DNA of 64,000 nucleotides, taken from the NCBI GenBank assembly GCA_963789985.1, contig CAWBNA010000019.1, positions 400,464-464,463 on the forward strand, given 5' to 3'. The translations under genes and the position numbers were made by a program. Position 1 is the stretch's first letter, and each line of letters begins with the position of its first letter. Positions 4,096 to 44,987 of this stretch are shown one piece after another. The notes beneath the pieces were generated by a model. It made no database searches, was not told where the DNA came from, and saw only the letters and a list, made by a program, of their open reading frames with translations. This DNA is from an uncultured Bacteroidales bacterium. Lineage in GTDB: Bacteria > Bacteroidota > Bacteroidia > Bacteroidales > VadinHA17.

Positions 4096-4109
4096 ATAAA
4101 CAGAGCACA

Positions 4110-5150: not shown

Positions 5151-5166
5151 TTTGCATTTAAAGAAG

Positions 5167-5907: not shown

Positions 5908-5917
5908 TGACAGTAAG

Positions 5918-16896: not shown

Positions 16897-19668
16897 TCAT
16901 TTACCGGCCTGTTCCTGAAACTCATATATATAATCACCCGACCCTTTACGGAACCCGGTACTTACCGGTAATTCATTCTCCCGGTCATTTCTTAATTCCC
17001 TGACCGTCACCAGCTCATCTTTGCGCGGGTTGAGAGGGGACCCGTTTTCAGTAACCTTTGAAAAATCATCAACGGGGAGTATCACTGTTGCAACCGTATT
17101 GACAGGGATACTTACCTTAACGACTATCTTCCCGTCCTTTCTTTCCCATCCCGATGAAATGGTGCCGTAAGGGCTGTCAAAAGAGGCTTTGGAATATTCA
17201 AGTTTTTTGGTAATCTGAGGATTGATCCTGAATTGCCTGTAACCGGGCTCCATGACTTCAATTCCTGCCGAAGACCTGTACATCCAGTCACCAATTGCCC
17301 CGTAAGCGTAATGGTTGAACGAGTTCATTCCTGAATCCTGGAATGTGCTGTCGGGCTTTTCACCGTCCCACCTTTCCCATATTGTTGTGGCACCCATTCT
17401 GACGGGATAAAGCCACGAGGGATATGTTTCCTGAAGCAGCAGGTCATATGCAACTTCAGAATATCCTTCCCTGGAAAGTACATGGCACAGGAAGGGAGTA
17501 CCGAGGAACCCGGTGGAAAGGTGGTTTCCCCTGCTCTTTATGTCTTCCACAAGATATTTTGCTGCCTTTTCTCTCAGATCATCAGGAAGAAGTTTGAATT
17601 GCAAGGCAAGTACGTAGGATGTCTGTGAATTTGTTCCTACTCTTCCGGCAGGTGTAACATATTCATTAATAAATACTTTCTTTATTTTTTCAAAAAGATC
17701 TGAATAAAACCTGGCATCGTCTGCTTTCCCGAGTTCCTTTGCTGCATCTGCCAGAATACTGGTGGAATAGGCAAAAAATGCCGTTGCGATGAAATCGTGT
17801 TCAGTATAGCCGTCCGGTTCGGTATGCTTATCTACAGGCGGGTGATAAAACAGCCAGTCACCATACTTGCTTCCACCTTTCCAGATATAGCTGTCACCTG
17901 CTTTTTTCCTGATATATTCAACCCATGCCTTCATGCCGGGATACTGGTTCTCCAGCAGTTTTTTGTCGCCATAAACCTGGTATATAGTCCATGGCACAAT
18001 AACTGCGACATCGCCCCATCCTGCTGACGGTACGGTAGTTGTTGAACCCTGTTTGTCAAGGATATCGGGAATGACATCGGGAACTTCACCGCCTGGTTTC
18101 TGATCAGCAGAGATATCCTTCAGCCATTTTGTAAAAAATGCTGAAACATCAAAATTAAATGCTGCTGTTCTGCTGAAGGCCTGTGCATCACCAGTCCACC
18201 CCAGACGTTCATCCCTTTGCGGACAGTCAGTTGGAACATCCACAAAGTTTCCCTTCTGGCCCCATTGAATATTATGCTGCAACCGGTTCAGAAGTGGATT
18301 TGAACATTCGAAGCTGCCGGTGACTTCCATATCAGAATGAACAACTATTCCCGTTATGTTATCCGCCGTCAGTTCTCCAGGAAAACCTTTGATTTCCACG
18401 TATCTGAAACCCATGAATGTAAACCGGGGCTCATATACCTCTTCCCCTGTGCCTGCAAGGGTATAGGTAAGCTGAGCTTTGGCTGAACGCAGGTTCTCAG
18501 TATAGAACTCTCCATACTTATCCAGCACTTCTGCATGGCGAATTGTAACGACTGTTCCTTTTGGCCCTGAGACCTTCAACCTGATCCATCCGACCATATT
18601 CTGGCCCAGATCAGCAACCAGGCTTCCCTTGAGAGTCCTGAAAATCCTCACTGGCTTTATTTCCTGAATCCTGCGCACTGCGGGTCCCTCCGTCGATATC
18701 AGGTTATCAAAGGAATAATTGCCTGTCCTGACATTTTTCCAGCCTGCATCGTTGAAACCGTTCAAATCCCATCCGGTAAGCTTTTTTGTAGCATCAAAGG
18801 TTTCACCGTTGTAGATATCGTTCATCCTTATAGCCCCGTCATTAATTCCTTTCCAGGTTTCATCGGTGGTAATCAGCGACTCGCTTCCGTCAGTATACCT
18901 GATTCTCATTTGCATGAGCAATCCAAGCCTCTTTCCATAAATGGCCCAGTTGTTGCCCCATGCAAGTGTGCCTCTGTACCATCCGTCACCAAGTACAGCT
19001 CCGACTGTGTTCGTTCCTTTTGTAAGCATCTGAGTGACATCAAATACTTGATACTGAAGCCTTTTAAGATAGGAAGTCCAGCCCGGTGTAAATACCTGGT
19101 CACCAACCTTCTTACCATTTATATGCAACTCATAGAAACCATGTGAAGTGACATACACCCTGGCCGATGCTATGCCTTTTGTAAGAGTGAATTCCTTTCT
19201 GAAATGTGGAGAAGGTGAGTAACGCATAGTATCTCCTTCAAGTTCAATCCATCCGGCTTTCCACCCTGAATGATCCAGAAGTCCTGTTTCCCAGTATGCA
19301 GTCCCGCTCCATTTTGATTCTTTTCCCCTGTTGTCCCATACTTTTACCTGCCAGTAATATCTCTGGCAAGGTTTCAGGGGTGAACCATTATAATCCACGA
19401 GGATTGACCGATTGGATATGACTTTCCCTGATTGCCAGACCATTCCTGAAGATGAGAATTTCGGATCAGCTGATACCTTTACGGAATATGCTTTCTGCAT
19501 TACATTTGATCCTGCAGCCTTAATTTTCCATGAAAGCCTGGGCTGCAGAGCATCGATTCCCAAAGGATTGCTTTTATGTTCGCATGTCAGATCATAAACC
19601 GACAGATCCTGAGAAAAAGAATATGTCGTAAAAAGCATAACTGCAATTATCAATTTAAGTGATTTCAT
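16897..19668 (-). CDS. alpha-L-rhamnosidase (GH78)
   Basis: 923 aa with a signal peptide and the catalytic-domain motif DCPQRDERLGWTGD typical of GH78. Confidence 0.9.
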   Translation of the reverse strand: MKSLKLIIAVMLFTTYSFSQDLSVYDLTCEHKSNPLGIDALQPRLSWKIKAAGSNVMQKAYSVKVSADPKFSSSGMVWQSGKVISNRSILVDYNGSPLKPCQRYYWQVKVWDNRGKESKWSGTAYWETGLLDHSGWKAGWIELEGDTMRYSPSPHFRKEFTLTKGIASARVYVTSHGFYELHINGKKVGDQVFTPGWTSYLKRLQYQVFDVTQMLTKGTNTVGAVLGDGWYRGTLAWGNNWAIYGKRLGLLMQMRIRYTDGSESLITTDETWKGINDGAIRMNDIYNGETFDATKKLTGWDLNGFNDAGWKNVRTGNYSFDNLISTEGPAVRRIQEIKPVRIFRTLKGSLVADLGQNMVGWIRLKVSGPKGTVVTIRHAEVLDKYGEFYTENLRSAKAQLTYTLAGTGEEVYEPRFTFMGFRYVEIKGFPGELTADNITGIVVHSDMEVTGSFECSNPLLNRLQHNIQWGQKGNFVDVPTDCPQRDERLGWTGDAQAFSRTAAFNFDVSAFFTKWLKDISADQKPGGEVPDVIPDILDKQGSTTTVPSAGWGDVAVIVPWTIYQVYGDKKLLENQYPGMKAWVEYIRKKAGDSYIWKGGSKYGDWLFYHPPVDKHTEPDGYTEHDFIATAFFAYSTSILADAAKELGKADDARFYSDLFEKIKKVFINEYVTPAGRVGTNSQTSYVLALQFKLLPDDLREKAAKYLVEDIKSRGNHLSTGFLGTPFLCHVLSREGYSEVAYDLLLQETYPSWLYPVRMGATTIWERWDGEKPDSTFQDSGMNSFNHYAYGAIGDWMYRSSAGIEVMEPGYRQFRINPQITKKLEYSKASFDSPYGTISSGWERKDGKIVVKVSIPVNTVATVILPVDDFSKVTENGSPLNPRKDELVTVRELRNDRENELPVSTGFRKGSGDYIYEFQEQAGK

Positions 19669-19766
19669 GTGTAAATAATTTTAATTTTAATGGTCACATG
19701 GAACCCACATGTTTGGAGAGGTATTTACATTTTTGTTTGTGTCTGGATAGAATGTGGGTTTCATAT
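19662..19766 (-). repeat. ~100-nt conserved leader element, copy A (upstream of GH78 gene)
   Basis: About 8 mismatches per 100 nt against 58386-58490 by eye. Contains an 11-bp inverted repeat (19700-19710 / 19752-19762, one G-T pair). Confidence 0.85.
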
Positions 19767-19782
19767 TATGAATTTTAGGTGC

Positions 19783-19817
19783 GATAAAATTGAATTTGAA
19801 ATTTATCCAATTTTATC
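19783..19817. promoter_or_regulatory. 10-bp perfect inverted repeat in the divergent GH78/rhaT control region (candidate operator)
   Basis: GATAAAATTG (19783-19792) and CAATTTTATC (19808-19817), separated by 15 nt. Confidence 0.35.
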
Positions 19818-19888
19818 TGATTTGGGAAAAGTAAAATGACTAATTTTATAATCTTTGTTTAAAATTGGAAGTTTTGACATCTCAGTAA

Positions 19889-20917
19889 ATGAACCCGGTT
19901 GCAGGAATTTTCTTAATTGCGCTTGGAAGTATAGGAGCAGCGAGTTTTTATGTTCCCCTGAGAAAGGTCAGGGAATGGGCCTGGGAATCATATTGGCTGG
20001 CACAGGGAGTTGCAGCATGGCTCATAGCTCCCTGGTTGTTTGCATTGATTTTCGTTCCGCATGGAGAGTTAATACCAATAATTAATGAATCATCGTCATC
20101 GGCAAAATTGATGGCAGTGTTCTTTGGAGTGCTCTGGGGCTTTGGCGGCCTGACTTTCGGACTGAGCATGAGGTACCTGGGTGTAGCACTGGGGCAAAGC
20201 ATTGCCCTCGGATTATGTGCTGCATTCGGAACCATAATACCTGCAGCAGTATCGGGGCAGAGTCTTTTTTCATCACGGGCAGGGATACTTACAATAATAG
20301 GCGTGGCCCTCACAGTGGCAGGCATTGCCATTATAGGATATGCCGGAGCTCTGAAAAGCAAAGGGCTGAACGAAGAGGAAAAAAAAGCAGCTGTAAAGGA
20401 GTTTGCATTGAAGAAAGGATTGCTGATTGCAATTTTCGCGGGTATAATGAGTGCCTGCTTCAATTTCGGATATCAGGTCGGCAAACCAATTGAGAACATA
20501 GCACTTGCCCACGGAACAAACCCTTTGTTCCAGAAAAATCCCACTTTGATTTTCATACTGTTCGGCGGTTTTCTTACAAATCTTGTCTATTGCGGATACC
20601 TTAACATCAGGAACAAAACCTGGAAAGACTATATCTCGGTTTCAGGAAAAACTATGCTCAATAATCTGTGTTTCTCATTTCTTGCAGGATTCCTCTGGTT
20701 CCTTCAGTTTCATTTCTTCGGAATGGGTTCCAGCAAGCTTCCGGCCGGAATGGCGGTATTCGGATGGAGCATACTTATGGCCCTTAACATTGCCATAAGC
20801 AATATCTGGGGTATAATACTCAAAGAATGGAAAGGTGCTGATGCCAGAACAATTGTTGTTCTGATCAGCGGGATTGTCATTCTTATCCTGTCGGCCTTTG
20901 TTGTGAAATTAACCTGA
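19889..20917 (+). CDS. rhaT: L-rhamnose:H+ symporter
   Basis: 342 aa and polytopic. The N-terminus GSIGAASFYVPLRKVREWAWESYW closely parallels E. coli RhaT. Confidence 0.9.
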   Translation: MNPVAGIFLIALGSIGAASFYVPLRKVREWAWESYWLAQGVAAWLIAPWLFALIFVPHGELIPIINESSSSAKLMAVFFGVLWGFGGLTFGLSMRYLGVALGQSIALGLCAAFGTIIPAAVSGQSLFSSRAGILTIIGVALTVAGIAIIGYAGALKSKGLNEEEKKAAVKEFALKKGLLIAIFAGIMSACFNFGYQVGKPIENIALAHGTNPLFQKNPTLIFILFGGFLTNLVYCGYLNIRNKTWKDYISVSGKTMLNNLCFSFLAGFLWFLQFHFFGMGSSKLPAGMAVFGWSILMALNIAISNIWGIILKEWKGADARTIVVLISGIVILILSAFVVKLT

Positions 20918-20926
20918 ATTTTAATT

Positions 20927-21241
20927 ATGAAAAGATCCGGCTTCAAGATGAAACTTTACCCTGGTTTCCGGGAAGAGTACAGGAAAAGACACACCGAAAT
21001 CTGGCCCGAGCTTGTTGCATTACTGAAAAACGAAGGAATAAGTAACTATTCTATATTCATCGATAATGAAACTAATACCTTGTTCGGGTACCAGGAACAA
21101 TCAGGTGAAAATTCCTCCCAGGATCTCGGACAATCTGAAATAGTCAAGAAATGGTGGAAGTATATGGCAGACATAATGGAAACAAACCCTGATAATTCGC
21201 CTGTTACAATCGCACTTGAAGAGGTTTTTTATTTGGAATAA
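20927..21241 (+). CDS. rhaM: L-rhamnose mutarotase
   Basis: 104 aa. KMKLYPGFREEYRKRHTEIWPEL matches the RhaM N-terminal signature. Confidence 0.9.
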   Translation: MKRSGFKMKLYPGFREEYRKRHTEIWPELVALLKNEGISNYSIFIDNETNTLFGYQEQSGENSSQDLGQSEIVKKWWKYMADIMETNPDNSPVTIALEEVFYLE

Positions 21242-21271
21242 ATTATATAAAATATTGCCGGCTAAAACTGC

Positions 21272-21297
21272 AAAATCAAAATTATTTACACATGAAA
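21272..21297 (+). promoter_or_regulatory. 26-nt start-proximal motif AAAATCAAAATTATTTACACATGAAA shared with leader copies A and B
   Basis: Exact 26/26 match to the reverse complement of 58387-58412, and 25/26 to the copy A equivalent. Includes the rhaA ATG. Confidence 0.7.
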
Positions 21298-22557
21298 AAA
21301 GAAAATGTGAAAAAAGCTTATCAGTTTGCAAAAGAACAATATGCAGAACTTGGAATTGATACTGACAAAGTGTTAACTGAATTGGATAAGCTGGTTATAA
21401 GCCTCCATTGCTGGCAGACTGATGACGTTGGAGGTTTTGAGAGAGAAGGGGCGGAACTTGGCGGAGGGGGCATACAAGCTACCGGTAATTTTCCGGGGAA
21501 AGCCCGCAATATAGGACAGATGAGGGATGACCTGGATAAAGTGATGTCGCTTGTTCCCGGGAAGCAGCGAATCAACCTGCATGCCATTTACGGAGAGTTC
21601 GGCGGCGAAAAGATCGATCGCAACCGGATTGAAATCAAGCATTATCAGGGATGGATCGACTGGGCCAGAAAAAGAGGGATAGGGTTAGATTTTAATTGCA
21701 CATGCTTTTCTCATCCGTTTGCTGATGACGGATTCACACTTTCAAGTAAAAACCCGAAAACCAGGAAATTCTGGATCGAGCATACAAAACGCTGCCGCGC
21801 GATTGCTGCGGAAATGGGAAAGCAGCTGGGAACGCCTTCAGTTCATAACATCTGGATCCCGGACGGTTCAAAGGATATTCCGGTCGATCGTTTCGCCCTG
21901 CGCAAGATTCTTAAAAAATCACTCGACGAAATCTTCTCTGTAAAATACCCGAAGAAATATCTCAAGGACTCAGTTGAAAGCAAGTTATTTGGCATAGGAT
22001 CCGAATCGATGGTTGTAGGTTCTTTCGATTTTTACCTTGGATATGCAATCAAGAACAAGACAATGATAACACTCGACAACGGGCATTTCCACCCGACAGA
22101 ACAGGTTGGGGACAAGATCTCATCAATTCTTCTCTTTGTGGATGAAATCCTTCTGCACCTGACAAGAGGAGTAAGATGGGACAGCGACCATGTGCTGACC
22201 CTGAATGATGAACTATTGCTGATTGCAGAGGAAATTGTCCGTTCAAACTCCCTTCCCAAAGTAAATATCGGACTTGATTATTTCGATGCAAGTCTCAACA
22301 GGATAGGAGCTTATGTTATTGGAATCAGGGCGGCACAGACAGCTTTCATGTATGCAATGCTTGAACCGCAGAAAGCGCTTGTCAGATTTGAAGAGGAAGG
22401 GAAGAACTTTGAAAGGTTGTCATTTCTTGAATTGATGAAAACAAAACCTTTCGGAGCTGTTTACGATTATTATTGTATGATCAATGATACACCTTCAGGC
22501 CAGGATTATATTGAGGAAATTGGCAAATATGAAAAGAAGGTTTTAATGAAAAGATAA
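21292..22557 (+). CDS. rhaA: L-rhamnose isomerase
   Basis: 421 aa with the SLHCWQTDDVGGFE motif. Length and context match RhaA. Confidence 0.9.
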   Translation: MKKENVKKAYQFAKEQYAELGIDTDKVLTELDKLVISLHCWQTDDVGGFEREGAELGGGGIQATGNFPGKARNIGQMRDDLDKVMSLVPGKQRINLHAIYGEFGGEKIDRNRIEIKHYQGWIDWARKRGIGLDFNCTCFSHPFADDGFTLSSKNPKTRKFWIEHTKRCRAIAAEMGKQLGTPSVHNIWIPDGSKDIPVDRFALRKILKKSLDEIFSVKYPKKYLKDSVESKLFGIGSESMVVGSFDFYLGYAIKNKTMITLDNGHFHPTEQVGDKISSILLFVDEILLHLTRGVRWDSDHVLTLNDELLLIAEEIVRSNSLPKVNIGLDYFDASLNRIGAYVIGIRAAQTAFMYAMLEPQKALVRFEEEGKNFERLSFLELMKTKPFGAVYDYYCMINDTPSGQDYIEEIGKYEKKVLMKR

Positions 22558-22596
22558 TTGTGAAATTTTCATTCATCATATTTTGAGAGAATTAAA

Positions 22597-23964
22597 ATGA
22601 AGGAAAAAGTTATAGCAGTATTTGATATCGGGAAGACCAACAAAAAGCTGATCATTTTTGACTATAACCTGAGGCAAATCATGGATGAGGAGAGAAGATT
22701 TACAGAAAGCGTTGATGATGATGGATTTGAATGCGATAATATAGAGATGATCGAAGAATGGCTCACTGATTCCATAATACGGTTGCTGCATTCCGACAGA
22801 TTTGATCTGACAGCGATTAATTTTGCAACATATGGCGCAACCATTGCCTATCTGGGATCTGACGGGAAAAGGATCACCCCTGTATATAACTATCTCAAAC
22901 CGATTGATGACTTGATCCCGGAAAGAATATACAGGAGATACGGGGGACAGGACGAATTTTGCAGAAGGACAGCTTCACCTGCACTGGGGATGCTTAATTC
23001 CGGAATGCAGATAATCTGGCTAAAGACAACAAAACCGCAGGTCTTTTCCAGGGTAAAGCATATTCTTCATTTTCCGCAGTACTTTTCATACCTTGTCACA
23101 GGGAAGACCTATTCGGAACACACTTCAATAGGCTGCCATACAGCACTTTGGGATTTTGATGAGATGACCTACCATCCCTGGGTCAGGGATCATTGCGTGG
23201 AACTTCCGGAACCAGTTCCGGTAAGTACAATTAATGAAGTTGAAGTTGAGGGTAAAAAGATCAAGGTCGGCATCGGGATACATGACAGCTCTTCTTCACT
23301 TGCACCCTACTTTGCAAGCAACAGAGGAAAATTCCTTCTTATTTCAACCGGGACATGGTGCATTAATATGAACCCTTTCAACTCTGAAAAACTTACCGTG
23401 GATCAGCTCGACAGGGATTGCCTGTGCTATATGAGCGTAACAAGCAAACCGGTGAAATCCTCGAGAATATTCATAGGCCAACTTCATGAGACAGGTTTGA
23501 AGATGCTGAATGAGCACTTCAGGACTACCGATGATTTTTACAGAAACGTGTATTTTGACCAGGATCTTTACATTATGCTGAAATCAAGATATAGCGGCGA
23601 CAGAAGAGCTTTCTTCACAAGCGGACCCGGATCGAGGGAATTCAGGGAAAGAATTGACCTGTTTGATTTCAAATCATTTGATGAAGCTTATCATCAGCTT
23701 ATGAGCGAGCTTACTGATCTGACAATAGAATCAATAAGGCTTATTATTCCTCAGAATGATGACACTGAAAATATGTATATTACCGGAGGCTTTGCAAAGA
23801 ACAACATATTCCTTAGGCTGATGGCAAAAGCATTTCCTGAAAAGAAAGTTTATACGTCATTAATAAATGATGCATCAGCTCTCGGAGCAGCCCTGGCCAT
23901 TTATAATCCGGTAACCGGCAAACAGATTGAACCGGAACTCGGACTTACCGAATGTGCATATTAA
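22597..23964 (+). CDS. rhaB: FGGY-family sugar kinase, probable rhamnulokinase
   Basis: 455 aa with an FGGY-like N-terminus AVFDIGKTNKK and C-terminal ITGGFAKN. Function is assigned mainly from its position after rhaA. Confidence 0.65.
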   Translation: MKEKVIAVFDIGKTNKKLIIFDYNLRQIMDEERRFTESVDDDGFECDNIEMIEEWLTDSIIRLLHSDRFDLTAINFATYGATIAYLGSDGKRITPVYNYLKPIDDLIPERIYRRYGGQDEFCRRTASPALGMLNSGMQIIWLKTTKPQVFSRVKHILHFPQYFSYLVTGKTYSEHTSIGCHTALWDFDEMTYHPWVRDHCVELPEPVPVSTINEVEVEGKKIKVGIGIHDSSSSLAPYFASNRGKFLLISTGTWCINMNPFNSEKLTVDQLDRDCLCYMSVTSKPVKSSRIFIGQLHETGLKMLNEHFRTTDDFYRNVYFDQDLYIMLKSRYSGDRRAFFTSGPGSREFRERIDLFDFKSFDEAYHQLMSELTDLTIESIRLIIPQNDDTENMYITGGFAKNNIFLRLMAKAFPEKKVYTSLINDASALGAALAIYNPVTGKQIEPELGLTECAY

Positions 23965-25907
23965 TTCGTAAAGAAAAAGATCATTAATGTCCCTGCAGTC
24001 ATAAGGAAAAAAGCTAAAGGAAGACTCAGCAGAAATTTCTTAAGGGGCTTTGCCTGATATCCATTCCAGGTTCTTCCAATGTTCCTGAGACTTAAATAAA
24101 GTCCGGTAAGTACAAGTACTGCCTGGAACCATGGTATCAACTGAGGAAAAAGCTGATGCCATGGAATATTTGCAGTCCCGAAGAAATCCCAGCCCCAACC
24201 GAAAGGATCAGAGACCGACTGGATTATGAATGTCACATTTACAAAGAACATAGGGATCACAAAAGCGATCCATAGCATGAGTCCCAATGGCAGGAGAGAT
24301 CCTGAGTAGCCCAGGAATATGTATCCTGGTTTTAAATCTGCTTTTGAAATTCGCTTGCCCAGTATTGCAAGAAGATAAATAATTCCGGGAATTACTGCAA
24401 GAACAATAAACCATAGGGAGGCTGAGTAAATGCCGAACAGTCCCCAGTTATGCTTATCCATAATGTTCACGTAATCACGCACTGAAGGCCACGGACCAAG
24501 ATAAAGTATGCTGTATATAATTGATATGGTAAATATTGCTGTCACCAGCCATGCCTCGCTTAAAGAACGGGTCCCTGTTTCAGAGGCAAAAGGTCTTTTG
24601 TAAAGTGAAACGTTGTTATATGTGCAGCTCCTGAAGCACTCAAGGCACAATCCGCAATCAGTGTTCTCCTTGATCCTGCCCACATTAAGTCCGTAAGGGC
24701 AGGCCCACCCATTGATATTTCCGTTCTGACAATAATGGGGTTTGCACTGGTCGCATACTTCCTGGGATCCGCTCCTTAACGCAAGCGGATTCATTCTTGC
24801 AAAAGGGTTTACAAAAACACTTACCGGGCATACGTACCTGCAGAATGCCCTTAGCTCCCAGAAGATCCCCATTATGGCAGGTACAACTATAAGAATAAGA
24901 ACCGCTGTTCCTGAAAGTTTAGGCACTGCAACAAGCGTTGTCGAAAAAGTTGCAAAAACCATAAAGCAGAACAACTTAAGCCATTCATTATTAAGCTTTT
25001 CAGGCCATTTATTGAAGAAGCCGGAGAACCTGTTGTTGTAATCGCCTCTTTTCCCTTTCAGCGGGTTGAAAATTGATCTCCGCTGGATAAGATCTCCGAA
25101 TAAAGGAAGAGGGCATATCGTACACCATATTCTTCCAAAGAAAGGTGTAAGAAGGGCCACAAGAACAAAGAGCCACACCGACCACATCATCAGGACACCC
25201 AGGTTCCTTCCCGACATCTTGGTTCCAAAGAGTGAAGTAAGTATCACAATATAGATAAGCACCATCATCAGAATTGTTATAAAAATCTGGACTCCTCTGT
25301 TTAGTATGACCTTTCTGAGGAATCCACTGCCGAGCTTCAGCTCCCTGTATTTTTCTTCCGGCTGGCCCGATTGTTTATTCCTGCCGAAGAACCCGAGCAA
25401 CCAGATCAGGATTATTCCAGCTATAGATCCAAGACTCATACAAAGCAGGGTATTTGGCAATATAACAAGCTTCCCCTGCTCAAATGCATGCATGGGTCCG
25501 CACCATACATGGCAGCGGTAATTGCTTTTGGAAACAAGTATATTTGCAATTCCTGAATGTTTCGCAGTCAGTACAACTTCTTTGGTTATTTCCGGCTTTA
25601 TTGTCGGATCGCTGGGTCTGAAAACGGCTACTTCATCACGGGCAGGAGTTACCTTTACATCAATGTCGAATTCCTCGAGAAAGAAGGAATGACCTGTATC
25701 ATTGGTTGAAAAAGTCAAATGAAGCCTGTCTCCCCGGTTGCACCTTATGACATATGGAGTCTTGCCATAACGGAAACTGGTGATGTGTATATACCTGTCG
25801 GAAGGTTTTTTTATAAAGAGCTGACATACGACTGCCGGTATCAGGCTGAAAGCTAATATTATCAGGATTTTATCAACGTTTTTCCTTATCTGATCCATCA
25901 ATCTCAA
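23961..25907 (-). CDS. fusion membrane protein: N-terminal cupredoxin-like domain + NapH/NosR-type polyferredoxin
   Basis: 648 aa. Residues ~40-150 look cupredoxin-like (NDTGHSFF ... YRCHVWCGPMHAFEQGKLVILP). Downstream are GRIWCTICP and AFCRYVCP membrane motifs, Cys clusters CDQCKPHYC and CGLCLECFRSC, and multiple TM helices. Confidence 0.65.
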   Translation of the reverse strand: MRLMDQIRKNVDKILIILAFSLIPAVVCQLFIKKPSDRYIHITSFRYGKTPYVIRCNRGDRLHLTFSTNDTGHSFFLEEFDIDVKVTPARDEVAVFRPSDPTIKPEITKEVVLTAKHSGIANILVSKSNYRCHVWCGPMHAFEQGKLVILPNTLLCMSLGSIAGIILIWLLGFFGRNKQSGQPEEKYRELKLGSGFLRKVILNRGVQIFITILMMVLIYIVILTSLFGTKMSGRNLGVLMMWSVWLFVLVALLTPFFGRIWCTICPLPLFGDLIQRRSIFNPLKGKRGDYNNRFSGFFNKWPEKLNNEWLKLFCFMVFATFSTTLVAVPKLSGTAVLILIVVPAIMGIFWELRAFCRYVCPVSVFVNPFARMNPLALRSGSQEVCDQCKPHYCQNGNINGWACPYGLNVGRIKENTDCGLCLECFRSCTYNNVSLYKRPFASETGTRSLSEAWLVTAIFTISIIYSILYLGPWPSVRDYVNIMDKHNWGLFGIYSASLWFIVLAVIPGIIYLLAILGKRISKADLKPGYIFLGYSGSLLPLGLMLWIAFVIPMFFVNVTFIIQSVSDPFGWGWDFFGTANIPWHQLFPQLIPWFQAVLVLTGLYLSLRNIGRTWNGYQAKPLKKFLLSLPLAFFLMTAGTLMIFFFTN

Positions 25908-26038
25908 ATCTTCCTGGTTGGTGCAAATGTTTTTAGGATTTCAATAATAGTTATTAAATTCCGGAAAAACATAGGTAATTCTCATTTTAGGATTTGTTTT
26001 AAAATATATCTTCGTCCGTAAATTCATTTCAATCTTCA

Positions 26039-27654: not shown

Positions 27655-28062
27655 ATGAAAAGCATAAAATGTTTATTGCCGGTGATTCTCATATTCTTTC
27701 TGAATATTCCGCTGAATGCGCAAAAGCCCGATTCAACGATAAAAGTCAAGAGCATGGTCGTATACCAGGAAAAATATGAGTCCGTGTCACCCAAAAAGTA
27801 CAAGGAGTCGGAGCAGAATTTTGACATAAAAGGAAATCTGATCGAGGATATTTCTTATAAACAGGGTAAAATATCCAGGCATTTCCGTTATGAGTATAAC
27901 TCTGACAACGACAAGATCAAGGAGGAAAAGCTTGATGCTTCCGGAAAAGTGGTAGAGACTTCAGAGTACAAATATGCAAATGGTCTCAGAATAGAAAAGA
28001 CAGTCTATAATGCTGATAAAAAGATCAAATCGAAAAAGACTTACCTCTATTCCATCTATTAG
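27655..28062 (+). CDS. small secreted hypothetical protein
   Basis: 135 aa with a signal peptide (LNIPLNAQ) and repetitive K/Y-rich beta-like segments. No family recognised. Confidence 0.5.
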   Translation: MKSIKCLLPVILIFFLNIPLNAQKPDSTIKVKSMVVYQEKYESVSPKKYKESEQNFDIKGNLIEDISYKQGKISRHFRYEYNSDNDKIKEEKLDASGKVVETSEYKYANGLRIEKTVYNADKKIKSKKTYLYSIY

Positions 28063-28065
28063 CGT

Positions 28066-28848
28066 ATGAATATCAAGCTTATAAATGACCTGTTGTACGT
28101 GTTTTCTCCCATAAACCTCGATGAGCTTGATAAAGTCAGCTTTATGGATCGTATTGACACAAAATACGTTTTCTCGGCCACGAGGCTTCCTGATTTATTG
28201 AAAATACTGAAGGAAGAGTACCGGATACTGGATATAAATGGAGAAAGGATCTTTGCTTACAGTACGATCTATTTTGACACACCTGACCACCAGTTTTACT
28301 TTGAGCATGTAAAAGGTAAGCAGGAAAGGAATAAGCTGAGGTTCAGACATTATGAAATATCAGGAGCTACTTTCCTTGAGATAAAGAAGAGAACACGAAA
28401 GAACCGGACAGTCAAATGGAGGATAACACATGATCCTGACAACAATTTATCTGATGAAAATGCTCAGAAATTTATCAATGAACACCTTGATTGTGACCCC
28501 AATGATCTGTCGCCTGTCATGGAAAACAATTTTAACAGAATGACCTTTGCTGGTATAAATGCTCCTGAACGTGTAACAATAGACGTAAATTTGTCATTTC
28601 TTACACCTGACGGCGCAAAAGCTAAAATCGACGCGGCTGTGATTGCTGAACTTAAGAGTTCCGAAGTAGCTGCAAGATCTCTTTTTTTCAAAATAATGAA
28701 ACAGCTTTCATTCCACCCGACAGGATTCAGCAAGTATTGCGTGGGGAATGCCATTCTTGTTGATCTGCCTAATAAAAATATTCTAAAACAAAATTTACTG
28801 TTACTAAATAAGATTGAAAATGAATACAAACATTTTGGCGCTGCCTGA
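28066..28848 (+). CDS. VTC-domain (polyphosphate-polymerase-like, CYTH superfamily) protein
   Basis: 260 aa. The call rests on remembered family features (FMDRIDTKYVF, RFRHYE, EIKKRT) and pairing with a DUF4956-like gene. Not verified by search. Confidence 0.55.
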   Translation: MNIKLINDLLYVFSPINLDELDKVSFMDRIDTKYVFSATRLPDLLKILKEEYRILDINGERIFAYSTIYFDTPDHQFYFEHVKGKQERNKLRFRHYEISGATFLEIKKRTRKNRTVKWRITHDPDNNLSDENAQKFINEHLDCDPNDLSPVMENNFNRMTFAGINAPERVTIDVNLSFLTPDGAKAKIDAAVIAELKSSEVAARSLFFKIMKQLSFHPTGFSKYCVGNAILVDLPNKNILKQNLLLLNKIENEYKHFGAA

Positions 28849-29524
28849 TGATATAAGTATTGCAGGACTCGACCTGATTGATCCGCCAGGATTCCTGGCA
28901 TTTGTACTGCGATTTGCACTGAATTTTACGGTAATAATGATTCTCGTACGCTGGTTATATTACTCTACGACCAAACGGAAAGATTATCTTTTTACCTATA
29001 TACTGATATCCACGCTTGTCTTTTTGCTCTGCTATCTGCTTGAAAGCGTAAAACTTCAGATCGGTTTTGCACTCGGGCTCTTTGCAATTTTCGGGATCAT
29101 ACGATACAGGACCAACGCGATTCCGATAAAGGAGATGACCTATCTTTTCCTCATCATAGGTGTCTCCGTAATCAATGCCCTCACCAGTGACAAAACAAGC
29201 GTTGTCGATCTTCTTTTTACCAACTTCACAATAATATTCATAACATTCGGACTTGAAAAGCTTTGGTTGCTGAAGAATGAATCATCAAAGCAGGTGCTTT
29301 ATGAGAAGATCGAATTAATCAAGGACGGAAGGTACGATGAACTTGTCAGGGATCTTCAGGAAAGGACAGGCATCAGTAAAATTAACAGGGTAGAGGTTGG
29401 AAAGATCAATTTCCTGAGGGATACATGTGATTTGACTGTTTATTATTTTGAAAAAAAAGGTAAGGAGTACCATTCAGAAGAGAACACGGAAAGCAATAAC
29501 AACAATGACGACGACGACGATTAG
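28814..29524 (+). CDS. DUF4956-like membrane protein with poly-N/D tail
   Basis: 236 aa with several TM helices and a C-terminus ending NNNNDDDDD. Usual partner of bacterial VTC-domain genes. Confidence 0.5.
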   Translation: MKMNTNILALPDDISIAGLDLIDPPGFLAFVLRFALNFTVIMILVRWLYYSTTKRKDYLFTYILISTLVFLLCYLLESVKLQIGFALGLFAIFGIIRYRTNAIPIKEMTYLFLIIGVSVINALTSDKTSVVDLLFTNFTIIFITFGLEKLWLLKNESSKQVLYEKIELIKDGRYDELVRDLQERTGISKINRVEVGKINFLRDTCDLTVYYFEKKGKEYHSEENTESNNNNDDDDD

Positions 29525-29617: not shown

Positions 29618-30976
29618 ATGAAGACGAATTATTACATCCCATTGGCATTCCTGTGTATTTTCTGCCTGGAACCTTACCTTATTGCTCAGGTCAGCCCTCA
29701 GAGGCAATGGACCGGGTATCGAGGCTGCCTGTCATCCGGAGTTCTTGATAATGCTGATTTGCCGGCTACCTTCAGCTTTGAAAAGATGGAAAATATAAAG
29801 TGGAAGATCAGCATACCTGGAATGGGTATTTCGAGCCCTGTGATCTGGGGCAATAAACTTTTTCTTACATCAGCGATAAGTGATGCCGACAAAGCAGGAT
29901 TCAAGCCCGGCCTGTATGGTGATGTCAGGTCCGTAAACGACTCTTCTGTTCATGAATGGAAAGTATTTTGCATTAATAAAAATAACGGCAGAGTGATATG
30001 GGAAAAAACGGCATACAGGGGTGTCCCAAAGATCAAAAGACATCCCAAGTCGACCCACGCAAACACTTCAGTTGCAGTTGACGGAGAGCATGTTGTGGTG
30101 TTTTTCGGATCAGAGGGACTCTACTGCTATGATTTTGACGGACAACTCCTCTGGCAGAAAAATTTCGGGGTGCTCAAAGCTGCATTTTTCATGATGAAAG
30201 ATGCGGAGTGGGAGTTTGCCAGCTCACCAATAATATATGACGGGAAACTGATAATCCAATGCGATGTCCTGGAAAACTCTTTCCTCGCAGCTTTTGATGT
30301 CAATACCGGGAACGAACTCTGGAGGAGTGTAAGAGACGACTATCCCGCATGGAGCACTCCCAATATCTATAAGAACAAAGATAAGGCTTATGTTGTCGTA
30401 AACGGGTTCAGACACATGGGCGGATATGATCTTCTTACCGGCAAGGAGATCTGGAGAATGTCGGGAGGAGGAGACATCCCTATCCCCACACCGGTAATCG
30501 GAGATGACCTTATCTATTTTAACAGTGCTCACGGGAAATTCTCCCCCATAATTGCTGTAAGGAAAGATGCATCGGGCGACATAACACTGCCAGACAAGGA
30601 AACATCAGGTCAGTTTGTGCAATGGAGCAAACCAAGAGGAGGCTCCTACATGCATACATTACTTTTGTACCGTAACAGGCTTTACAATGTAAACTGGAAC
30701 GGAATGATCAACTGCATCGATCCATCCTCAGGCAGGGAAATATTCAATGCAAAACTTGGTAAATCGTCAAGCTTTATTGCCTCTCCTGTTGCTTCAGACG
30801 GAAGAATATTCATTGTCGATGAAACGGGAACCGTTTACATCATTCAGGATGGAGATGCCTTCAGGGAACTTGCCGAAATTCCGATGGATGAGATCTGCAT
30901 GACCGCACCTGCAATAACCGACGGTCTGATCTTCTTCAGAACACAGAACCACCTTTATGCAGTAGGTAAGAAATAA
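29618..30976 (+). CDS. PQQ/BamB-like beta-propeller repeat protein (paralog P1), secreted
   Basis: 452 aa with a signal peptide, post-signal QWTGYRG motif and repeated xxGxxxW blade motifs (NNGRVIWEKT, TGNELWRS, TGKEIWRM). Confidence 0.8.
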   Translation: MKTNYYIPLAFLCIFCLEPYLIAQVSPQRQWTGYRGCLSSGVLDNADLPATFSFEKMENIKWKISIPGMGISSPVIWGNKLFLTSAISDADKAGFKPGLYGDVRSVNDSSVHEWKVFCINKNNGRVIWEKTAYRGVPKIKRHPKSTHANTSVAVDGEHVVVFFGSEGLYCYDFDGQLLWQKNFGVLKAAFFMMKDAEWEFASSPIIYDGKLIIQCDVLENSFLAAFDVNTGNELWRSVRDDYPAWSTPNIYKNKDKAYVVVNGFRHMGGYDLLTGKEIWRMSGGGDIPIPTPVIGDDLIYFNSAHGKFSPIIAVRKDASGDITLPDKETSGQFVQWSKPRGGSYMHTLLLYRNRLYNVNWNGMINCIDPSSGREIFNAKLGKSSSFIASPVASDGRIFIVDETGTVYIIQDGDAFRELAEIPMDEICMTAPAITDGLIFFRTQNHLYAVGKK

Positions 30977-30989: not shown

Positions 30990-33900
30990 TTATTCTCTCC
31001 TTATCCCGGCTATTATATCATCCTTTTTTATAGCCCGTACCGAAAAGACCAATGATGTGATGCCTGTAGTTATAATGAGGATCATCATTATTACAATTGT
31101 TCTCCAAGGTATCGCGTTTCCATTCATCATTGACGGTCTGGTGGCAATCAGAGCTGAAACAAGTCCAGCCGCTGTTCCTGACATCAGTATCATGGCATGC
31201 TCGCCAAGAACAATTCTTCTGATCGTTCTCAGAGAGAATCCTGCAGCCATCATCAGTCCGAAATCGCGCTTTCTCTGGTTAAAATTCCTGATAAGGATGA
31301 ATCCCAGCCCGGCGACACCCAGTATCAGGCCAATCGCTCCAAGAACCGTGAAAACAGACAGATAGGTATTTGTAACGACAAAAAAAGAAGCAAGCCTGTC
31401 GGCAGCAGGCTCAAAATGAGCTCCAAAATCCGATAGTCTCTCCGTCAGGGCATTCTTATAAATTTCTGCCATTTTCGGGTTTCCGTCAACCAGGAAAATC
31501 TGACTTCCGGCGACTGAAGGAAAATATTTAATGAAGTTTTTATTGCCTATTATAACATATCCCTGGAATACAGATGATCTCAATCCGGCGCAGATTATTA
31601 CGTTAAGCATCTGTCCGCTTTCACTTCTTATTTTCAGTGTATCACCCGGCTTGATTTTCAGGCCATACTGAAGCACAGTCTGGTCGGCTATTCCGTAAAT
31701 AGTGCCTTCTCCCGGAGAATAATCCAGTGTTGACCAGGGGTTTGTTTTCTTTATGCCCTCCATTTCAGAAGCAAAAGAAAATGAACCTTTACTTATGAAG
31801 TGCTCAGGATCGACCCCGAGAAGGGGAGGAGTTGTAATATGATTAAGGTTAAGGCAACTTGCATCATTACCTGAAGTTTTCCTTGCCTGCACAAGTGAAA
31901 GATCTTTCAGTTCCTGGTCATCCAGGCCATATTCATTTCTGCCTTCTGAACTGTTAAGATCGTCCCTTTCCGGCAGGGACGATTCTCCCCAGAGAAGAAA
32001 TCCGCCGGTGCCACCTGAAGGCTGAAGCATGCTGTTGGTTAAATTCATCCTGTTAACACCGGTTATGATCACGGCAAAGAGCCCGGCAGCAAGAAAAATG
32101 ACCGGAGCGACAGCCTGGGAAGGATAAAAGGAGAAATAACAGCCTGATATCTGTTTTGCCTTTCTGAAACTGAAAATTCCTGTTCTTTGATTACCGATAA
32201 AATATTGCCTGGTCAGAAGGATCATTGTTGAAAAAACAAATATTCCGGCACAAAATGAAAGCAATGTTGAATTGCGGGTAAGAATAAATGACAGTACTGT
32301 CGATAAAAGAGTAAGAGCAGCAAAAACAATCAGGAAAATAAGATTCTTCCCGGCTGAAGGCTTTTCTGTTTTACCTGTTTCGGGCTTGTTCAGATATTTC
32401 AAAAACCGGCCCGACTTTATTATCAGTATTAAAAATATTATAATGAAAGAAATTGCAAATCCTGTCAGAAGTGACCACGGGTCAAACTCTGAAACCAGGG
32501 TGTTTGTCTGCACAGCACCATGCCATACTGAATTAAGAGCTTTGATTGTCAGGGCATTAAAAATTCCTCCCGCAAAGGTTCCCGTTATGGTTCCGCAGAA
32601 CGCGATCATTGCTGTTTCGTAAATAAGTATTTTTTTGATCTTACGGTTTGCAAATCCAAGGGAAAAGAGAGTATTGACCTGTTCTTTTTTTGATTCAAAA
32701 AAGGTCGATACAACAAGAATGAGGAGGATCAGGGATGAGAGTAGAATGAAGAAGCCAAGGCCCAGAAAAAGTGTGCTGAAATCAACACTTTCATTTGCCG
32801 CTTTTTCCAATTCTGCCGGAAGATCCATAATTGTAAAGCCTGCCTTTTCAGGGTCAATGGATCGGGTAAGTTTTGCAAGTATCTCATTTTTACTCACATC
32901 ACTGCTGAAACGGACTGAGGTAACCGGACCAAAATTATTTCCCCATAATTCCCTGCCTTTTTCGTAGTTTATGAAAGCCTTTGGGGTACCGCCGGACTTT
33001 TTCCAGTATTCCTCATCCTTCGGCCGGATCCTGTCGAAATGGATAGTGGTGCCGGCATCCCAGCTTGTACATGATTTCCTTCCTGCAATTCCTGGAAATT
33101 CAGGCATCAGCAGCGAATCAGACCAGATGCCTTCCATTGGTACCACCTTACTGACAATAAAATTCATATTCTCTTCCCTGAGGTGATTCATCGGATCAGG
33201 GGAATACCATGTAATGTTTATGGTGTCGCCTTCCCGTGCAGACAGGTCATCAGCAATCCATCTGTTTATTACAATTCCGTTATCAGCCGGAATGCCTTTA
33301 TACAACAAAGGGTCAAGAGCAGAAATAAAAGAATAAGGCGTCATCTTTTTATCATGGGAAAAGCTGTTGGCCAGGTAAGTTAATACAGGATGTGGTTGCA
33401 ACCCGAGCTTTGCTATTTCATCGACCTGAACTTTGTCGATAAATATTCTGTCAGAAATAAGTTCATACCCTTTTGTTTCCGGAATAAAACGCAGTGAAAG
33501 TCCTATATCTCCAGGTTTCAGCTCTTCCCGAAGGCTCTTGTAAATGTACGGTACTGAAATTCCTTTCCTGTTTTTAAACAGCAGCCTGTTGACCTTTGGG
33601 ATACTATCCTGTTTGTCTGTCAGATCCTGACGGCGGACAAAAATATTCAGCGGAGTTATCTGACTGATACCCAGAGAAAAATTGCCCGACCTTCCGGAAG
33701 ACATAATTGCTCCGGTTTTAAATACCACTGATTCAGTAGTACCATTTGCCGGAGAGAAAGGGGCATCTGCGGGAATGTCACTCAGGGCATTGAACCGGAT
33801 TATCAGGTCAGTTCCCACATTCAGCCCAAGGTAAGCAGCAAGTCGTTCATTAACTGCAACTTCACCTTTTTTGATATTCATACCTTCAATTCCCTGAAAT

Positions 33901-34259
33901 GAAAAGAAGTTATTATCCACTGCATAGATTTTCAATATGGGAGATGTCTGCCCTGTTGTAAAATTCTGGCAATAACCCTCTGTTTCAAGGACTCCGGCGC
34001 ATTTAATGCCGGTCCTTGATTCCATCCTTCCTGAAAGCGAAGGATCAAAATAACGAATTCCTGAACTGACAACGATCCCCGTATTTCCTGTTTTTTCCGA
34101 GGAGGTTTTTTTCAGGCTGCTCCTGACCGATTTGCCGGTCATTAACGATCCTGTTATTACAGCAGTGAGAATAATTATTATGATGATCTGATAAGCAGCA
34201 CCTTTCAGATTGTGCGATATTGACCTTATGGTTATATGGAAAAGCGACAGCTTCATCAT
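30990..34259 (-). CDS. very large FtsX-family ABC permease (two FtsX modules)
   Basis: 1089 aa with TM clusters at the N-terminus, middle and C-terminus separated by large extracytoplasmic domains. Adjacent to a MacB/LolD-type ATPase. Confidence 0.8.
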   Translation of the reverse strand: MMKLSLFHITIRSISHNLKGAAYQIIIIIILTAVITGSLMTGKSVRSSLKKTSSEKTGNTGIVVSSGIRYFDPSLSGRMESRTGIKCAGVLETEGYCQNFTTGQTSPILKIYAVDNNFFSFQGIEGMNIKKGEVAVNERLAAYLGLNVGTDLIIRFNALSDIPADAPFSPANGTTESVVFKTGAIMSSGRSGNFSLGISQITPLNIFVRRQDLTDKQDSIPKVNRLLFKNRKGISVPYIYKSLREELKPGDIGLSLRFIPETKGYELISDRIFIDKVQVDEIAKLGLQPHPVLTYLANSFSHDKKMTPYSFISALDPLLYKGIPADNGIVINRWIADDLSAREGDTINITWYSPDPMNHLREENMNFIVSKVVPMEGIWSDSLLMPEFPGIAGRKSCTSWDAGTTIHFDRIRPKDEEYWKKSGGTPKAFINYEKGRELWGNNFGPVTSVRFSSDVSKNEILAKLTRSIDPEKAGFTIMDLPAELEKAANESVDFSTLFLGLGFFILLSSLILLILVVSTFFESKKEQVNTLFSLGFANRKIKKILIYETAMIAFCGTITGTFAGGIFNALTIKALNSVWHGAVQTNTLVSEFDPWSLLTGFAISFIIIFLILIIKSGRFLKYLNKPETGKTEKPSAGKNLIFLIVFAALTLLSTVLSFILTRNSTLLSFCAGIFVFSTMILLTRQYFIGNQRTGIFSFRKAKQISGCYFSFYPSQAVAPVIFLAAGLFAVIITGVNRMNLTNSMLQPSGGTGGFLLWGESSLPERDDLNSSEGRNEYGLDDQELKDLSLVQARKTSGNDASCLNLNHITTPPLLGVDPEHFISKGSFSFASEMEGIKKTNPWSTLDYSPGEGTIYGIADQTVLQYGLKIKPGDTLKIRSESGQMLNVIICAGLRSSVFQGYVIIGNKNFIKYFPSVAGSQIFLVDGNPKMAEIYKNALTERLSDFGAHFEPAADRLASFFVVTNTYLSVFTVLGAIGLILGVAGLGFILIRNFNQRKRDFGLMMAAGFSLRTIRRIVLGEHAMILMSGTAAGLVSALIATRPSMMNGNAIPWRTIVIMMILIITTGITSLVFSVRAIKKDDIIAGIRRE

Positions 34260-36237: not shown

Positions 36238-36407
36238 CCTGACTTTTTTCTCTGTGTCACCCTGTGACTTCTCTGTGGATCTCTGTGTAACAATAAAAAG
36301 TACACACTGATCCTGTAATAACATATATTATATTCATTTTGACATTTTTCTCTGTGTCACTCTGTGACTTCTCTGTGGATCTCTGTGTAACAAAAAACGT
36401 ACACAGA
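36208..36407. repeat. 100-bp tandem duplication (2 units, roughly 11 mismatches per 100 by eye) carrying phased CACAGAG heptads and a duplicated gene start
   Basis: Unit 1 is 36208-36307 and unit 2 is 36308-36407. Each has four CTCTGTG/CCCTGTG heptads at 10-11 bp spacing (36250, 36260, 36271, 36281 and 36350, 36360, 36371, 36381). Each also has a copy of the glycosyltransferase start (MKIVYLITGS versus MNIIYVITGS). Confidence 0.9.
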
Positions 36408-43985: not shown

Positions 43986-43994
43986 TCTGTTTTT

Positions 43995-44696: not shown

Positions 44697-44708
44697 AGAG
44701 AAATCAGT

Positions 44709-44909: not shown

Positions 44910-44987
44910 TTCTTGCCATAGTTTTCAGAAATCCAAATCCTTTTAGGTTAAAATGCACAATTTGAAAAGTCTCTGATGCGAGTGTGT

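Follow-up and report, generated by a model that had tools for sequence, protein, structure and literature searches.

What does a bacterium do with a protein that seems to carry a copper-site domain at one end and an iron-sulfur (Fe-S) membrane protein along the rest of its length? The question is raised by a gene for a polyferredoxin on a 64,000-nucleotide stretch of contig CAWBNA010000019.1 (assembly GCA_963789985.1), from an uncultured Bacteroidales bacterium, which was analysed as a whole and is called the window here. An earlier reading of its letters (the original prediction) had proposed that a cupredoxin-like domain with CuA-type Cys/His spacing is fused in this protein to a NapH/NosR-type membrane protein, and that the neighbouring FG-GAP gene may be part of the same system. 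Our analysis points to a previously undescribed module of two proteins, the polyferredoxin and an FG-GAP beta-propeller, that is probably redox in function and is shared by hundreds of mostly anaerobic bacterial species. The fold assignment of the N-terminal domain and the linkage of the two genes are solid, and the chemistry and biological role of the module are directly testable.

The polyferredoxin has a three-part architecture, in which an N-terminal anchor helix and a domain of 120 residues precede a NapH-like membrane core (Table 1). The protein reads ...NDTGHSFFLEEF... and ...YRCHVWCGPMHAFEQGKLVILPN. Residues are numbered throughout for the version of 648 amino acids (aa) that begins at TTG 25907. 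All of the elements first described for it are present, including the open reading frame (ORF), the pattern C-x3-C-x3-H-x2-E (nucleotides 25514-25476), the motifs WCTICP and FCRYVCP and two Cys clusters.

An N-terminal domain with a predicted CuA fold

Direct scans of the protein against Pfam and NCBIfam return only Fer4_5 and a weak NapH/MauN match. Single-sequence and shallow-profile searches of the Protein Data Bank (PDB) find CuA domains of the Thermus ba3 oxidase as their sole matches, at marginal E-values of 0.03-0.3, and these alignments place H73 on H114 and C132, C136, H140 and E143 on C149, C153, H157 and M160. The first of these residues sits in DTGHSFF, and C132, C136, H140, E143 and Q144 lie in YRCHVWCGPMHAFEQ.

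The cupredoxin homology becomes detectable only when distant relatives are part of the profile. A profile of the domain searched against a representative library of 1.8 billion proteins gathered 297 relatives, which fall into three tiers. The first consists of close full-length proteins that carry the loop CH-x2-CG-x2-H-x-FE, and the second, a small one, lacks the Cys residues. The third has the canonical CuA loop CS-x-TCG-x2-HPFM and is made up of numerous short proteins (150-190 aa) and a few longer ones (640-820 aa). When both loop types were combined in a profile of 59 sequences (A4), the Thermus ba3 CuA domain was matched over the whole domain with E-values of 9e-17 to 1e-14, followed by NosZ CuA domains at about 1e-9 and then by other COX2 chains. 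The original prediction had called for a hidden Markov model comparison with COX2 and Cupredoxin_1 profiles; the window protein itself goes unmatched in it, but two distant orthologs of the same architecture, with 28-31% identity along the full length, score above the Pfam COX2 gathering cutoff of 22 bits (P0215 at 28.6 and P0218 at 24.3 bits).

An AlphaFold2 model of residues 33-152, built from the alignment of these 59 sequences, has a predicted local distance difference test score (pLDDT) of 92.7 and a predicted template modelling score of 0.84. The best PDB matches to this model in Foldseek are the CuA domains of ba3 oxidase and NosZ, with probability 1.0 and template modelling scores (TM-scores) of 0.62-0.68, and the top 50 are all CuA, NosZ or cupredoxin chains. 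A full-length AlphaFold model made with 28 close homologs reached a pLDDT of 54.6 and was excluded from the fold search. On the combined strength of the profile-to-PDB E-values, the orthologs above the COX2 cutoff and the modelled structure, we assign the N-terminal domain a CuA-type cupredoxin fold, in agreement with what had been suspected.

A coordinated variant of the CuA ligand site

Ligand conservation was counted over 386 complete domains, drawn from this family and its relatives. Of these, 380 retain H73, 379 C132, 380 C136 and 384 H140 (98-99%), which is far above chance, and the same Cys and His residues hold across homologs from six phyla. Position 143 is occupied by Glu in 256 domains and by Met in 125. 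The full set of H73, C132, C136 and H140 with Glu (HCCHE) is found in 251 domains, 234 of which belong to fusions of 600 aa or longer, while the corresponding set with Met (HCCHM) is found in 125, of which 118 are in proteins shorter than 260 aa. The axial Met of CuA, three residues after the second His, is absent from the window protein, which has Glu143, and occurs only in this sister class.

The presence of Glu143 had been recognized from the start. It is not the sole change, since Glu143 covaries almost perfectly with His133, which replaces Ser as the residue after the first Cys (255 His/Glu against 110 Ser/Met), and also with Ser, instead of Gly, after H73. Because of this covariation, the Glu-type site is best read from the alignments as a coordinated, multi-residue variant of CuA rather than one substitution. 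The Glu-type clade also has an insertion of about seven residues near the site.

One subclade, from Acidobacteriota, is degenerate (loci L075 and L077; proteins P0148-P0153 and P0156). Its members carry H73Q, C132N and C136N, and they retain H133, H140 and E143 in four of six sequences, together with the fusion architecture and a downstream FG-GAP gene.

Iron-sulfur motifs and topology of the membrane core

Hydropathy reveals 10 clear transmembrane segments, and an eleventh (approximately residues 590-612) is seen as a helix in the full-length model, for a total of about 11. The nearest curated family is NapH/MauN, as expected for the NapH-type core that had been proposed, although the match is weak, spanning residues 248-433 with 21.7 bits against a TIGR02163 cutoff of 213. 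Residues 450-648 matched no Pfam family, and a search of solved structures with the membrane core gave no match. The most conserved peptide pattern that we could pick for the family lies in this C-terminal part, in the loop SDPFGWGWDFFGTANIPW (SDPFGWGW type).

The two Cys-Pro motifs differ in spacing, with x2 in WCTICP and x3 in FCRYVCP, and the latter matches in alignment the CxxxCP motif of another Fer4_5 protein encoded in the window. This second polyferredoxin was considered as a paralog and rejected, as the similarity is limited to generic motifs. Among the ferredoxin-type Cys residues, C385, C393, C403, C418, C421, C424 and C428 are invariant across the family, and C388 is not invariant in its most distant members.

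Stretches rich in Lys and Arg are found in the N-terminal segment and in the loops at residues 173-207, 255-309, 350-451 and 517-537, and the CxxCP motifs and ferredoxin Cys clusters fall within such loops. An even number of helices separates the 173-207 loop from the Fe-S region, and one helix separates it from the cupredoxin domain; the domain and the Fe-S Cys clusters therefore lie on opposite sides of the membrane. The [4Fe-4S] clusters of NapH are reported to be on the cytoplasmic side (PMC5449189). If those of the window protein are cytoplasmic as well, the cupredoxin domain across the membrane from them is predicted to be periplasmic, like that of COX2. Export of the Fe-S region by the twin-arginine translocation (Tat) pathway was rejected, as no conserved twin-arginine motif stands ahead of any helix. 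The three outcomes that had been named at the outset as refuting the idea of a periplasmic metal domain, namely a non-cupredoxin fold, Cys and His residues that vary among homologs and a predicted cytoplasmic location, are the opposite of what was observed or predicted.

Conserved pairing with an FG-GAP propeller

Gene neighbourhoods were examined in 80 retrieved loci. An FG-GAP gene adjoins the polyferredoxin gene in 63 of the 70 Glu-type loci, in divergent orientation in 43 and immediately downstream and co-directional in 20, and it does so in all three degenerate loci and in none of the five Met-type loci. Of the seven Glu-type loci that depart from this pattern, five are cut off by the end of a contig, and L032 is a second copy from a metagenome-assembled genome (MFD02416.bin.1.315) that also holds a linked copy (L018). 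The linkage spans Bacteroidota, Planctomycetota, Desulfobacterota, Acidobacteriota, Calditrichota and Gemmatimonadota. Because it has been kept in two gene orders across these phyla, it constitutes strong evidence that the polyferredoxin and the propeller are a functional pair, and the suspected connection between them is thereby extended well beyond the window.

In the window the partner, a protein of 465 aa (464 aa from ATG 26042 in the public gene call), has seven FG-GAP repeats after an N-terminal anchor helix. FG-GAP proteins from different loci are 48-75% identical, and the partner is the more conserved member of the pair, with 54-62% identity where the polyferredoxins share 40-50%. An alignment of 13 FG-GAP sequences from six phyla contains about 120 invariant positions, among them H242, H338, H417 and the acidic and aromatic motifs QFGYDDGETRWMEN, LVSQEWEE and TNGDAFDYIPP-x-PRPWHG. 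From the known layout of FG-GAP repeats, we take most of these positions to lie on loops of one propeller face.

The window carries the full signature of a Glu-type pair: an FG-GAP gene of about 465 aa next to a polyferredoxin that has both the loop CH-x2-CG-x2-H-x-FE and the SDPFGWGW loop. Between the two genes, an exact repeat of 11 nucleotides (nt), TTTTAGGATTT, occurs at 25931-25941 and 25985-25995, 54 nt apart; the rest of the window has no further copy (a mean of 0.22 per window is expected by chance). As a family feature this repeat was rejected, because it is absent from orthologous loci of other species.

Other genes accompany the pair in some lineages. A membrane-anchored TPR protein of about 600 aa adjoins it in approximately 40 loci (e.g. 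L005:6711-8540). These come from Bacteroidales and Calditrichota; the matches in Acidobacteriota and Desulfobacterota are weaker, and the window has no copy. This protein may be a third component of the pair. The original prediction had also placed the polyferredoxin beside a cluster of propeller genes; the FG-GAP neighbour is indeed widespread, but the PQQ_2 cluster is tied to the polyferredoxin only within one Bacteroidales subclade. PQQ_2 propellers, the FtsX/ABC genes and the TPR protein were all rejected as universal partners because they are confined to subclades.

Distribution and a Met-type sister module

The whole protein has more than 966 homologs, and a scan of one genome per species found a relative in at least 555 genomes from six or more phyla. 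Carriers include Bacteroidales, Prolixibacteraceae, Planctomycetota, Calditrichota, Desulfobacterota, Acidobacteriota, Gemmatimonadota and Marinimicrobia, and among them is the cultured Prolixibacter bellariivorans ATCC BAA-1284.

The sister proteins with Met at position 143 are organized differently. Their cupredoxin, which matches the profile of the window domain at E-values of 1e-8 to 1e-13, is often encoded by its own gene, directly upstream of a gene for a polyferredoxin (about 460-500 aa) and one for a COX2-cytochrome c fusion (L081, L082, L087 and L088). Fused Met-type forms exist as well (L083 and L084, with the same COX2-cytochrome c partner downstream, and also proteins P0200 and P0215). 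Met-type cupredoxin, polyferredoxin and COX2-cytochrome c form a conserved module that is apparently likewise undescribed. The Met-type domain finds its best NCBIfam match, at 36.7 bits, in the CuA part of L-NosZ, the recently defined clade III "lactonase-type" nitrous oxide (N2O) reductase; this is far below the cutoff of 700 bits and therefore indicates a relationship at the level of the domain only.

NosL, a MacB/FtsX ABC system, a P-type ATPase and PCYCGC and HMA proteins are encoded near some Met-type loci. The contexts of these loci indicate that the ancestral module is a copper-based device for periplasmic electron transfer mounted on a polyferredoxin, and in the Glu-type clade the FG-GAP propeller replaces the CuA-cytochrome c partner. 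The Met-type modules occupy L081:8004-11287 and L083:7866-10803, with two NosL genes present in some loci, and the L081 module adjoins genes of a bc-type complex and a GltD-like Fe-S flavoprotein.

Proposed function and alternatives

We propose that the polyferredoxin is a membrane electron-transfer subunit whose CuA-type site links the NapH-like Fe-S core to the FG-GAP propeller, so that the two proteins would form a two-subunit periplasmic oxidoreductase. We give this reading a probability of roughly 0.55. On its cytoplasmic side the core would hold both the two Cys-x(2-3)-Cys-Pro motifs and a pair of ferredoxin-type [4Fe-4S] clusters, whereas the cupredoxin domain, anchored by one helix, would be exposed to the periplasm, where H73, C132, C136 and H140 most likely hold a thiolate-bridged dicopper centre. 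The CuA centre of Thermus has a potential near 280 mV, and changes of the axial ligand shift the potential in natural CuA domains (PMC6115626). In the window protein, Glu143 takes the place of the axial Met, accompanied by His133, and the harder carboxylate would be expected to lower the potential toward that of Fe-S or quinol donors.

Electrons would arrive at the two cytoplasmic [4Fe-4S] clusters, transit through the membrane core, and proceed to the periplasmic CuA-like centre and from there to the FG-GAP partner. Proteins similar to NuoEF and NuoG are encoded 13 kb away in the window. The conserved loop surface of the propeller, rich in acidic, aromatic and His residues, is a probable substrate or metal site. 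Flow in the reverse direction is also possible, although the reductive direction, from the cytoplasm or quinol to the periplasm, seems more likely. The pair would then be wired in the manner of NosR/NosH to NosZ, of NapH to NapG, or of the NapH-NapG fusion (PMC5449189).

Several observations weigh against this proposal. Pfam and NCBIfam scans of the window protein or of its domain alone matched nothing in the N-terminal 150 residues, and COX2 and Cupredoxin_1 went unmatched even at E-values up to 10. Copper chaperone genes are neither conserved around Glu-type loci nor found in the window, and the host lineages are mostly anaerobes of sulfidic, copper-scarce habitats. The protein has no evident cofactor able to carry electrons across the membrane. 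No redox cofactor motif can be recognised in its FG-GAP partner, where only three His are invariant and a single Cys is nearly so, and a search with this partner against solved structures found only generic FG-GAP proteins, at E-values of 0.005 or higher, and no enzymatic relative. Lastly, the degenerate subclade keeps the pair without the Cys ligands, which implies that a thiolate-bridged copper site is dispensable to the role of the pair there.

The last of these points bears on an alternative that we consider unlikely, in which Glu-type proteins have no dicopper CuA centre at all. Their site would be another metal centre, such as mononuclear Cu, Fe or Zn bound through H133, H140 and E143 with or without the Cys residues, or the domain would serve mainly as a docking or structural element for the propeller. 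The covariation of H133 and E143 against Ser and Met, the insertion near the site and the survival of the H133, H140 and E143 set in degenerate proteins that have lost H73, C132 and C136 would all be natural under such a scheme. It is harder to reconcile with the presence of the four equatorial CuA ligands in more than 98% of Glu-type sequences, at exactly the CuA spacing and with CG after the second Cys, with a modelled fold that superposes on CuA domains, and with engineered CuA proteins, which keep the dinuclear site when their axial Met is replaced by Glu or Gln.

Less likely again is a role in copper handling similar to that of CcoG, a Fer4_5-type polyferredoxin with cupric reductase activity (PMC8267372). 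The Fe-S core would then alter the redox state of copper held transiently at the Cys/His/Glu site, and the role of the FG-GAP protein would be to accept or donate copper or to serve as a scaffold. Met-type sister loci do adjoin genes for NosL, P-type ATPase, PCYCGC and HMA proteins, and the additional His133 and Glu143 would suit an open, exchangeable site. However, the copper genes of the sister loci could equally mature CuA sites, no copper-related gene is conserved beside Glu-type loci, the protein has neither CcoG-specific domains (Fer4_18 and FixG_C) nor a CcoG match in NCBIfam, and the rigid CuA fold normally precludes exchange (PMC6115626).

That the polyferredoxin is an ordinary NapH/NosR-type accessory that serves one of the known respiratory systems (nap, nos or cytochrome oxidase) and has an incidental FG-GAP neighbour, as its weak NapH/MauN similarity and the occurrence of CuA domains in COX2 and NosZ might suggest, is very improbable and already largely refuted by a NapH score far under the cutoff, by the lack of nap, nos and heme-copper oxidase genes in the window and at conserved positions of the 80 loci, and by an FG-GAP linkage that is found in two gene orders and six phyla.

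Returning to the two-subunit oxidoreductase, a bolder version can be formulated that we regard as doubtful. The pair would be an unrecognised and widespread periplasmic oxidoreductase (six or more phyla, more than 500 species), a "split" counterpart of the propeller-plus-CuA enzymes NosZ and L-NosZ, with a new catalytic and possibly metal-containing site on the conserved His/acidic/aromatic face of the propeller and a Glu variant tuned to low potential for anaerobes.

Significance

Public annotations call the polyferredoxin a "4Fe-4S binding protein" or "polyferredoxin", and we found no description in the literature of a cupredoxin-polyferredoxin fusion, of a Glu/His variant of CuA or of the FG-GAP pairing. 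To our knowledge, CuA centres are almost confined to N2O reductases and heme-copper oxidases, and their axial ligand is always Met. The tuning of CuA by its axial ligand has so far been studied mainly in engineered mutants, and a large natural Glu/His clade would be a natural test case for it. The fusion of a cupredoxin to a NapH-type Fe-S protein, if the domain binds copper as we infer, would be a direct Fe-S-to-copper link across the membrane. We know of no bacterial FG-GAP propeller with an established redox role, and the strict pairing described here points to a periplasmic redox function in common anaerobes of sediment, soil and wastewater. Prolixibacter bellariivorans, being cultured, makes the module testable.

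Gene model and other features of the window

The polyferredoxin ORF is exactly as originally listed. However, the true start is probably ATG 25898, three codons downstream of TTG 25907, because the public gene call for an identical protein (P0001, 645 aa) begins there and orthologs align from that Met.

Table 1. Positions of the polyferredoxin gene and its parts, the partner gene and a second redox cluster in the window.
Feature	Position	Strand	Basis
Whole gene, CuA-like cupredoxin and NapH-like polyferredoxin membrane protein	23961-25907	-	ORF list; public P0001
First transmembrane (anchor) helix, residues 14-32, ahead of cupredoxin domain	25812-25868	-	Hydropathy 2.73; helix 2-30 in full-length model
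CuA-type cupredoxin domain, residues 33-152, predicted periplasmic	25452-25811	-	PDB profile matches; AlphaFold2; Foldseek
His73 codon (DTGHSF), putative first CuA His ligand, Thermus H114	25689-25691	-	PDB alignments; His in 380/386 domains
Ligand loop C132-H133-V-W-C136-G-P-M-H140-A-F-E143-Q144	25476-25514	-	Aligned to Thermus C149/C153/H157/M160
First membrane-edge Cys motif WCTICP, residues 261-266	25110-25127	-	C262, C265, P266 invariant to 28% identity; Fer4_5 at 241-279
Second membrane-edge Cys motif FCRYVCP, residues 355-361	24825-24845	-	C356, C360, P361 invariant
Two ferredoxin-type Cys clusters, presumed 2x[4Fe-4S], predicted cytoplasmic	24624-24755	-	C385/C388/C393/C403-P; C418/C421/C424/C428
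C-terminal five-helix membrane module, residues 452-648	23964-24554	-	Transmembrane segments; common to Met- and Glu-type proteins
Conserved predicted periplasmic loop SDPFGWGWDFFGTANIPW, residues 566-583	24159-24212	-	S566, D567, P568, W571, G577, W583 invariant
Divergent intergenic region, 131 bp, shared with FG-GAP gene; two TTTTAGGATTT copies (25931, 25985)	25908-26038
Partner gene, membrane-anchored seven-repeat FG-GAP/VCBS beta-propeller, 465 aa	26039-27436	+	Pfam FG-GAP_3, E 2e-41, 7 stretches
PQQ_2-type propellers (four)	47499-48806, 45902-47368, 40991-42712, 36411-37529	-
315-aa ORF without family	44988-45935	-
Second Fer4_5 polyferredoxin, NapH/NosR-like matches	42699-43985	-
NuoE+NuoF-like NADH flavoprotein fusion, 811 aa	38574-41009	-
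NuoG-N-terminal-like ferredoxin	37526-38593	-

A second cluster of redox and propeller genes occupies 36411-48806 on the reverse strand. This cluster may be a cytoplasmic module that passes electrons from NADH to Fe-S centres as a donor for membrane polyferredoxins.

Between the FG-GAP gene and the next propeller gene, a secreted protein of 135 aa, a VTC-domain protein and a DUF4956 membrane protein are encoded at 27655-29524 (+). In related genomes (L003/L008, L009 and L064) the trio is instead found on the far side of the polyferredoxin gene, and it accompanies the pair in a Bacteroidales subset only. A PQQ_2 propeller gene (29618-30976, +) is convergent with genes for a 1089-aa FtsX permease (30990-34259), an ABC ATPase (34269-35018) and a GT4 glycosyltransferase (34930-36324). 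This gene order recurs beside the pair in related Bacteroidales (L003, L004, L007-L009, L012, L015 and L016, among others) and not in other phyla.

On the opposite side, a rhamnose utilisation cluster (16897-23964) encodes a GH78 alpha-L-rhamnosidase, RhaT, RhaM, RhaA and an FGGY kinase, and the 3' end of the kinase gene overlaps the 3' end of the convergent polyferredoxin gene by 4 nt (23961-23964). Some Bacteroidales share this neighbourhood; in other phyla it has no connection with the pair. At 186-7738 (+), genes for a BatD-like protein and a MoxR-type AAA_3 ATPase belong to a Bat (aerotolerance-type) operon typical of Bacteroidota, which fits the taxonomic placement of the window. An Rfam scan of the window found no RNA families.

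Comparison with known systems

The closest solved relative of the N-terminal domain in sequence is the CuA domain of Thermus ba3 oxidase subunit II (PDB 2cua and 1ehk_B; E of about 1e-15, Foldseek TM-score of about 0.65). Both proteins place a cupredoxin, predicted to be periplasmic in the window protein, after an N-terminal anchor helix and share the spacing H...C-x3-C-G-x2-H. The Thermus domain has axial Met160 where the window protein has Glu, and the latter adds a His after the first Cys and the insertion of about seven residues. It also has no subunit I partner, and its cupredoxin is fused to a polyferredoxin rather than ending the protein.

The Met-type sister module shares a homologous cupredoxin, a homologous membrane core that includes the SDPFGWGW loop, and the domain order. 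It differs in its canonical Met, in the Ser after the first Cys, in a cupredoxin that is often separate, in the CuA-cytochrome c partner and in the copper-handling genes of some loci.

With NapH/MauN the protein has in common the membrane-edge Cys-x(2-3)-Cys-Pro motifs, two ferredoxin-type Cys clusters after the last core helix, on the predicted cytoplasmic side, and the Pfam domain Fer4_5 (PMC5449189). However, it has about 11 transmembrane helices instead of four, with the N-terminal cupredoxin and the C-terminal five-helix module as additions, and no NapG, nap or mau genes lie near it. The MLMS-1 polyferredoxin, a NapH-NapG fusion inserted by the dual Sec-Tat route, likewise combines a NapH-type core and a periplasmic redox domain in one polypeptide (PMC5449189). 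There, the added domain is a C-terminal Fe-S domain exported through Tat with a twin-arginine motif, whereas here it is an N-terminal cupredoxin that follows a signal-anchor helix, with no conserved twin-arginine motif.

The nos system follows a similar logic, with a membrane polyferredoxin that has a periplasmic redox domain (NosR/NirI), a CuA cupredoxin and a catalytic beta-propeller, and the domain-level ties to it are the NosZ CuA match at about 1e-9 and the L-NosZ CuA match of the Met-type domain. The periplasmic domain of NosR/NirI binds flavin mononucleotide (FMN), in contrast to the cupredoxin here, and neither an FMN_bind nor a NosR NCBIfam match was found in the window protein. In NosZ the CuA domain is carried by the propeller protein, whereas here it is carried by the polyferredoxin. 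The propeller in the present case is of the FG-GAP type, with Ca-loop repeats and three invariant His rather than the seven His of CuZ, and Glu-type loci contain no nosDFYL genes. CcoG/FixG/RdxA are also Fer4_5 polyferredoxin membrane proteins with a link to copper (PMC8267372), although they have no cupredoxin and a different number of transmembrane helices, and their Fer4_18 and FixG_C domains are absent here.

Because the polyferredoxin falls short of the NapH cutoff and lacks the FMN domain of NosR, the Fer4_18 and FixG_C domains of CcoG, the axial Met of CuA and an oxidase or NosZ partner, its sequence places it in none of these families. It nonetheless appears to work like NapH, NosR, CcoG and the classical CuA systems.

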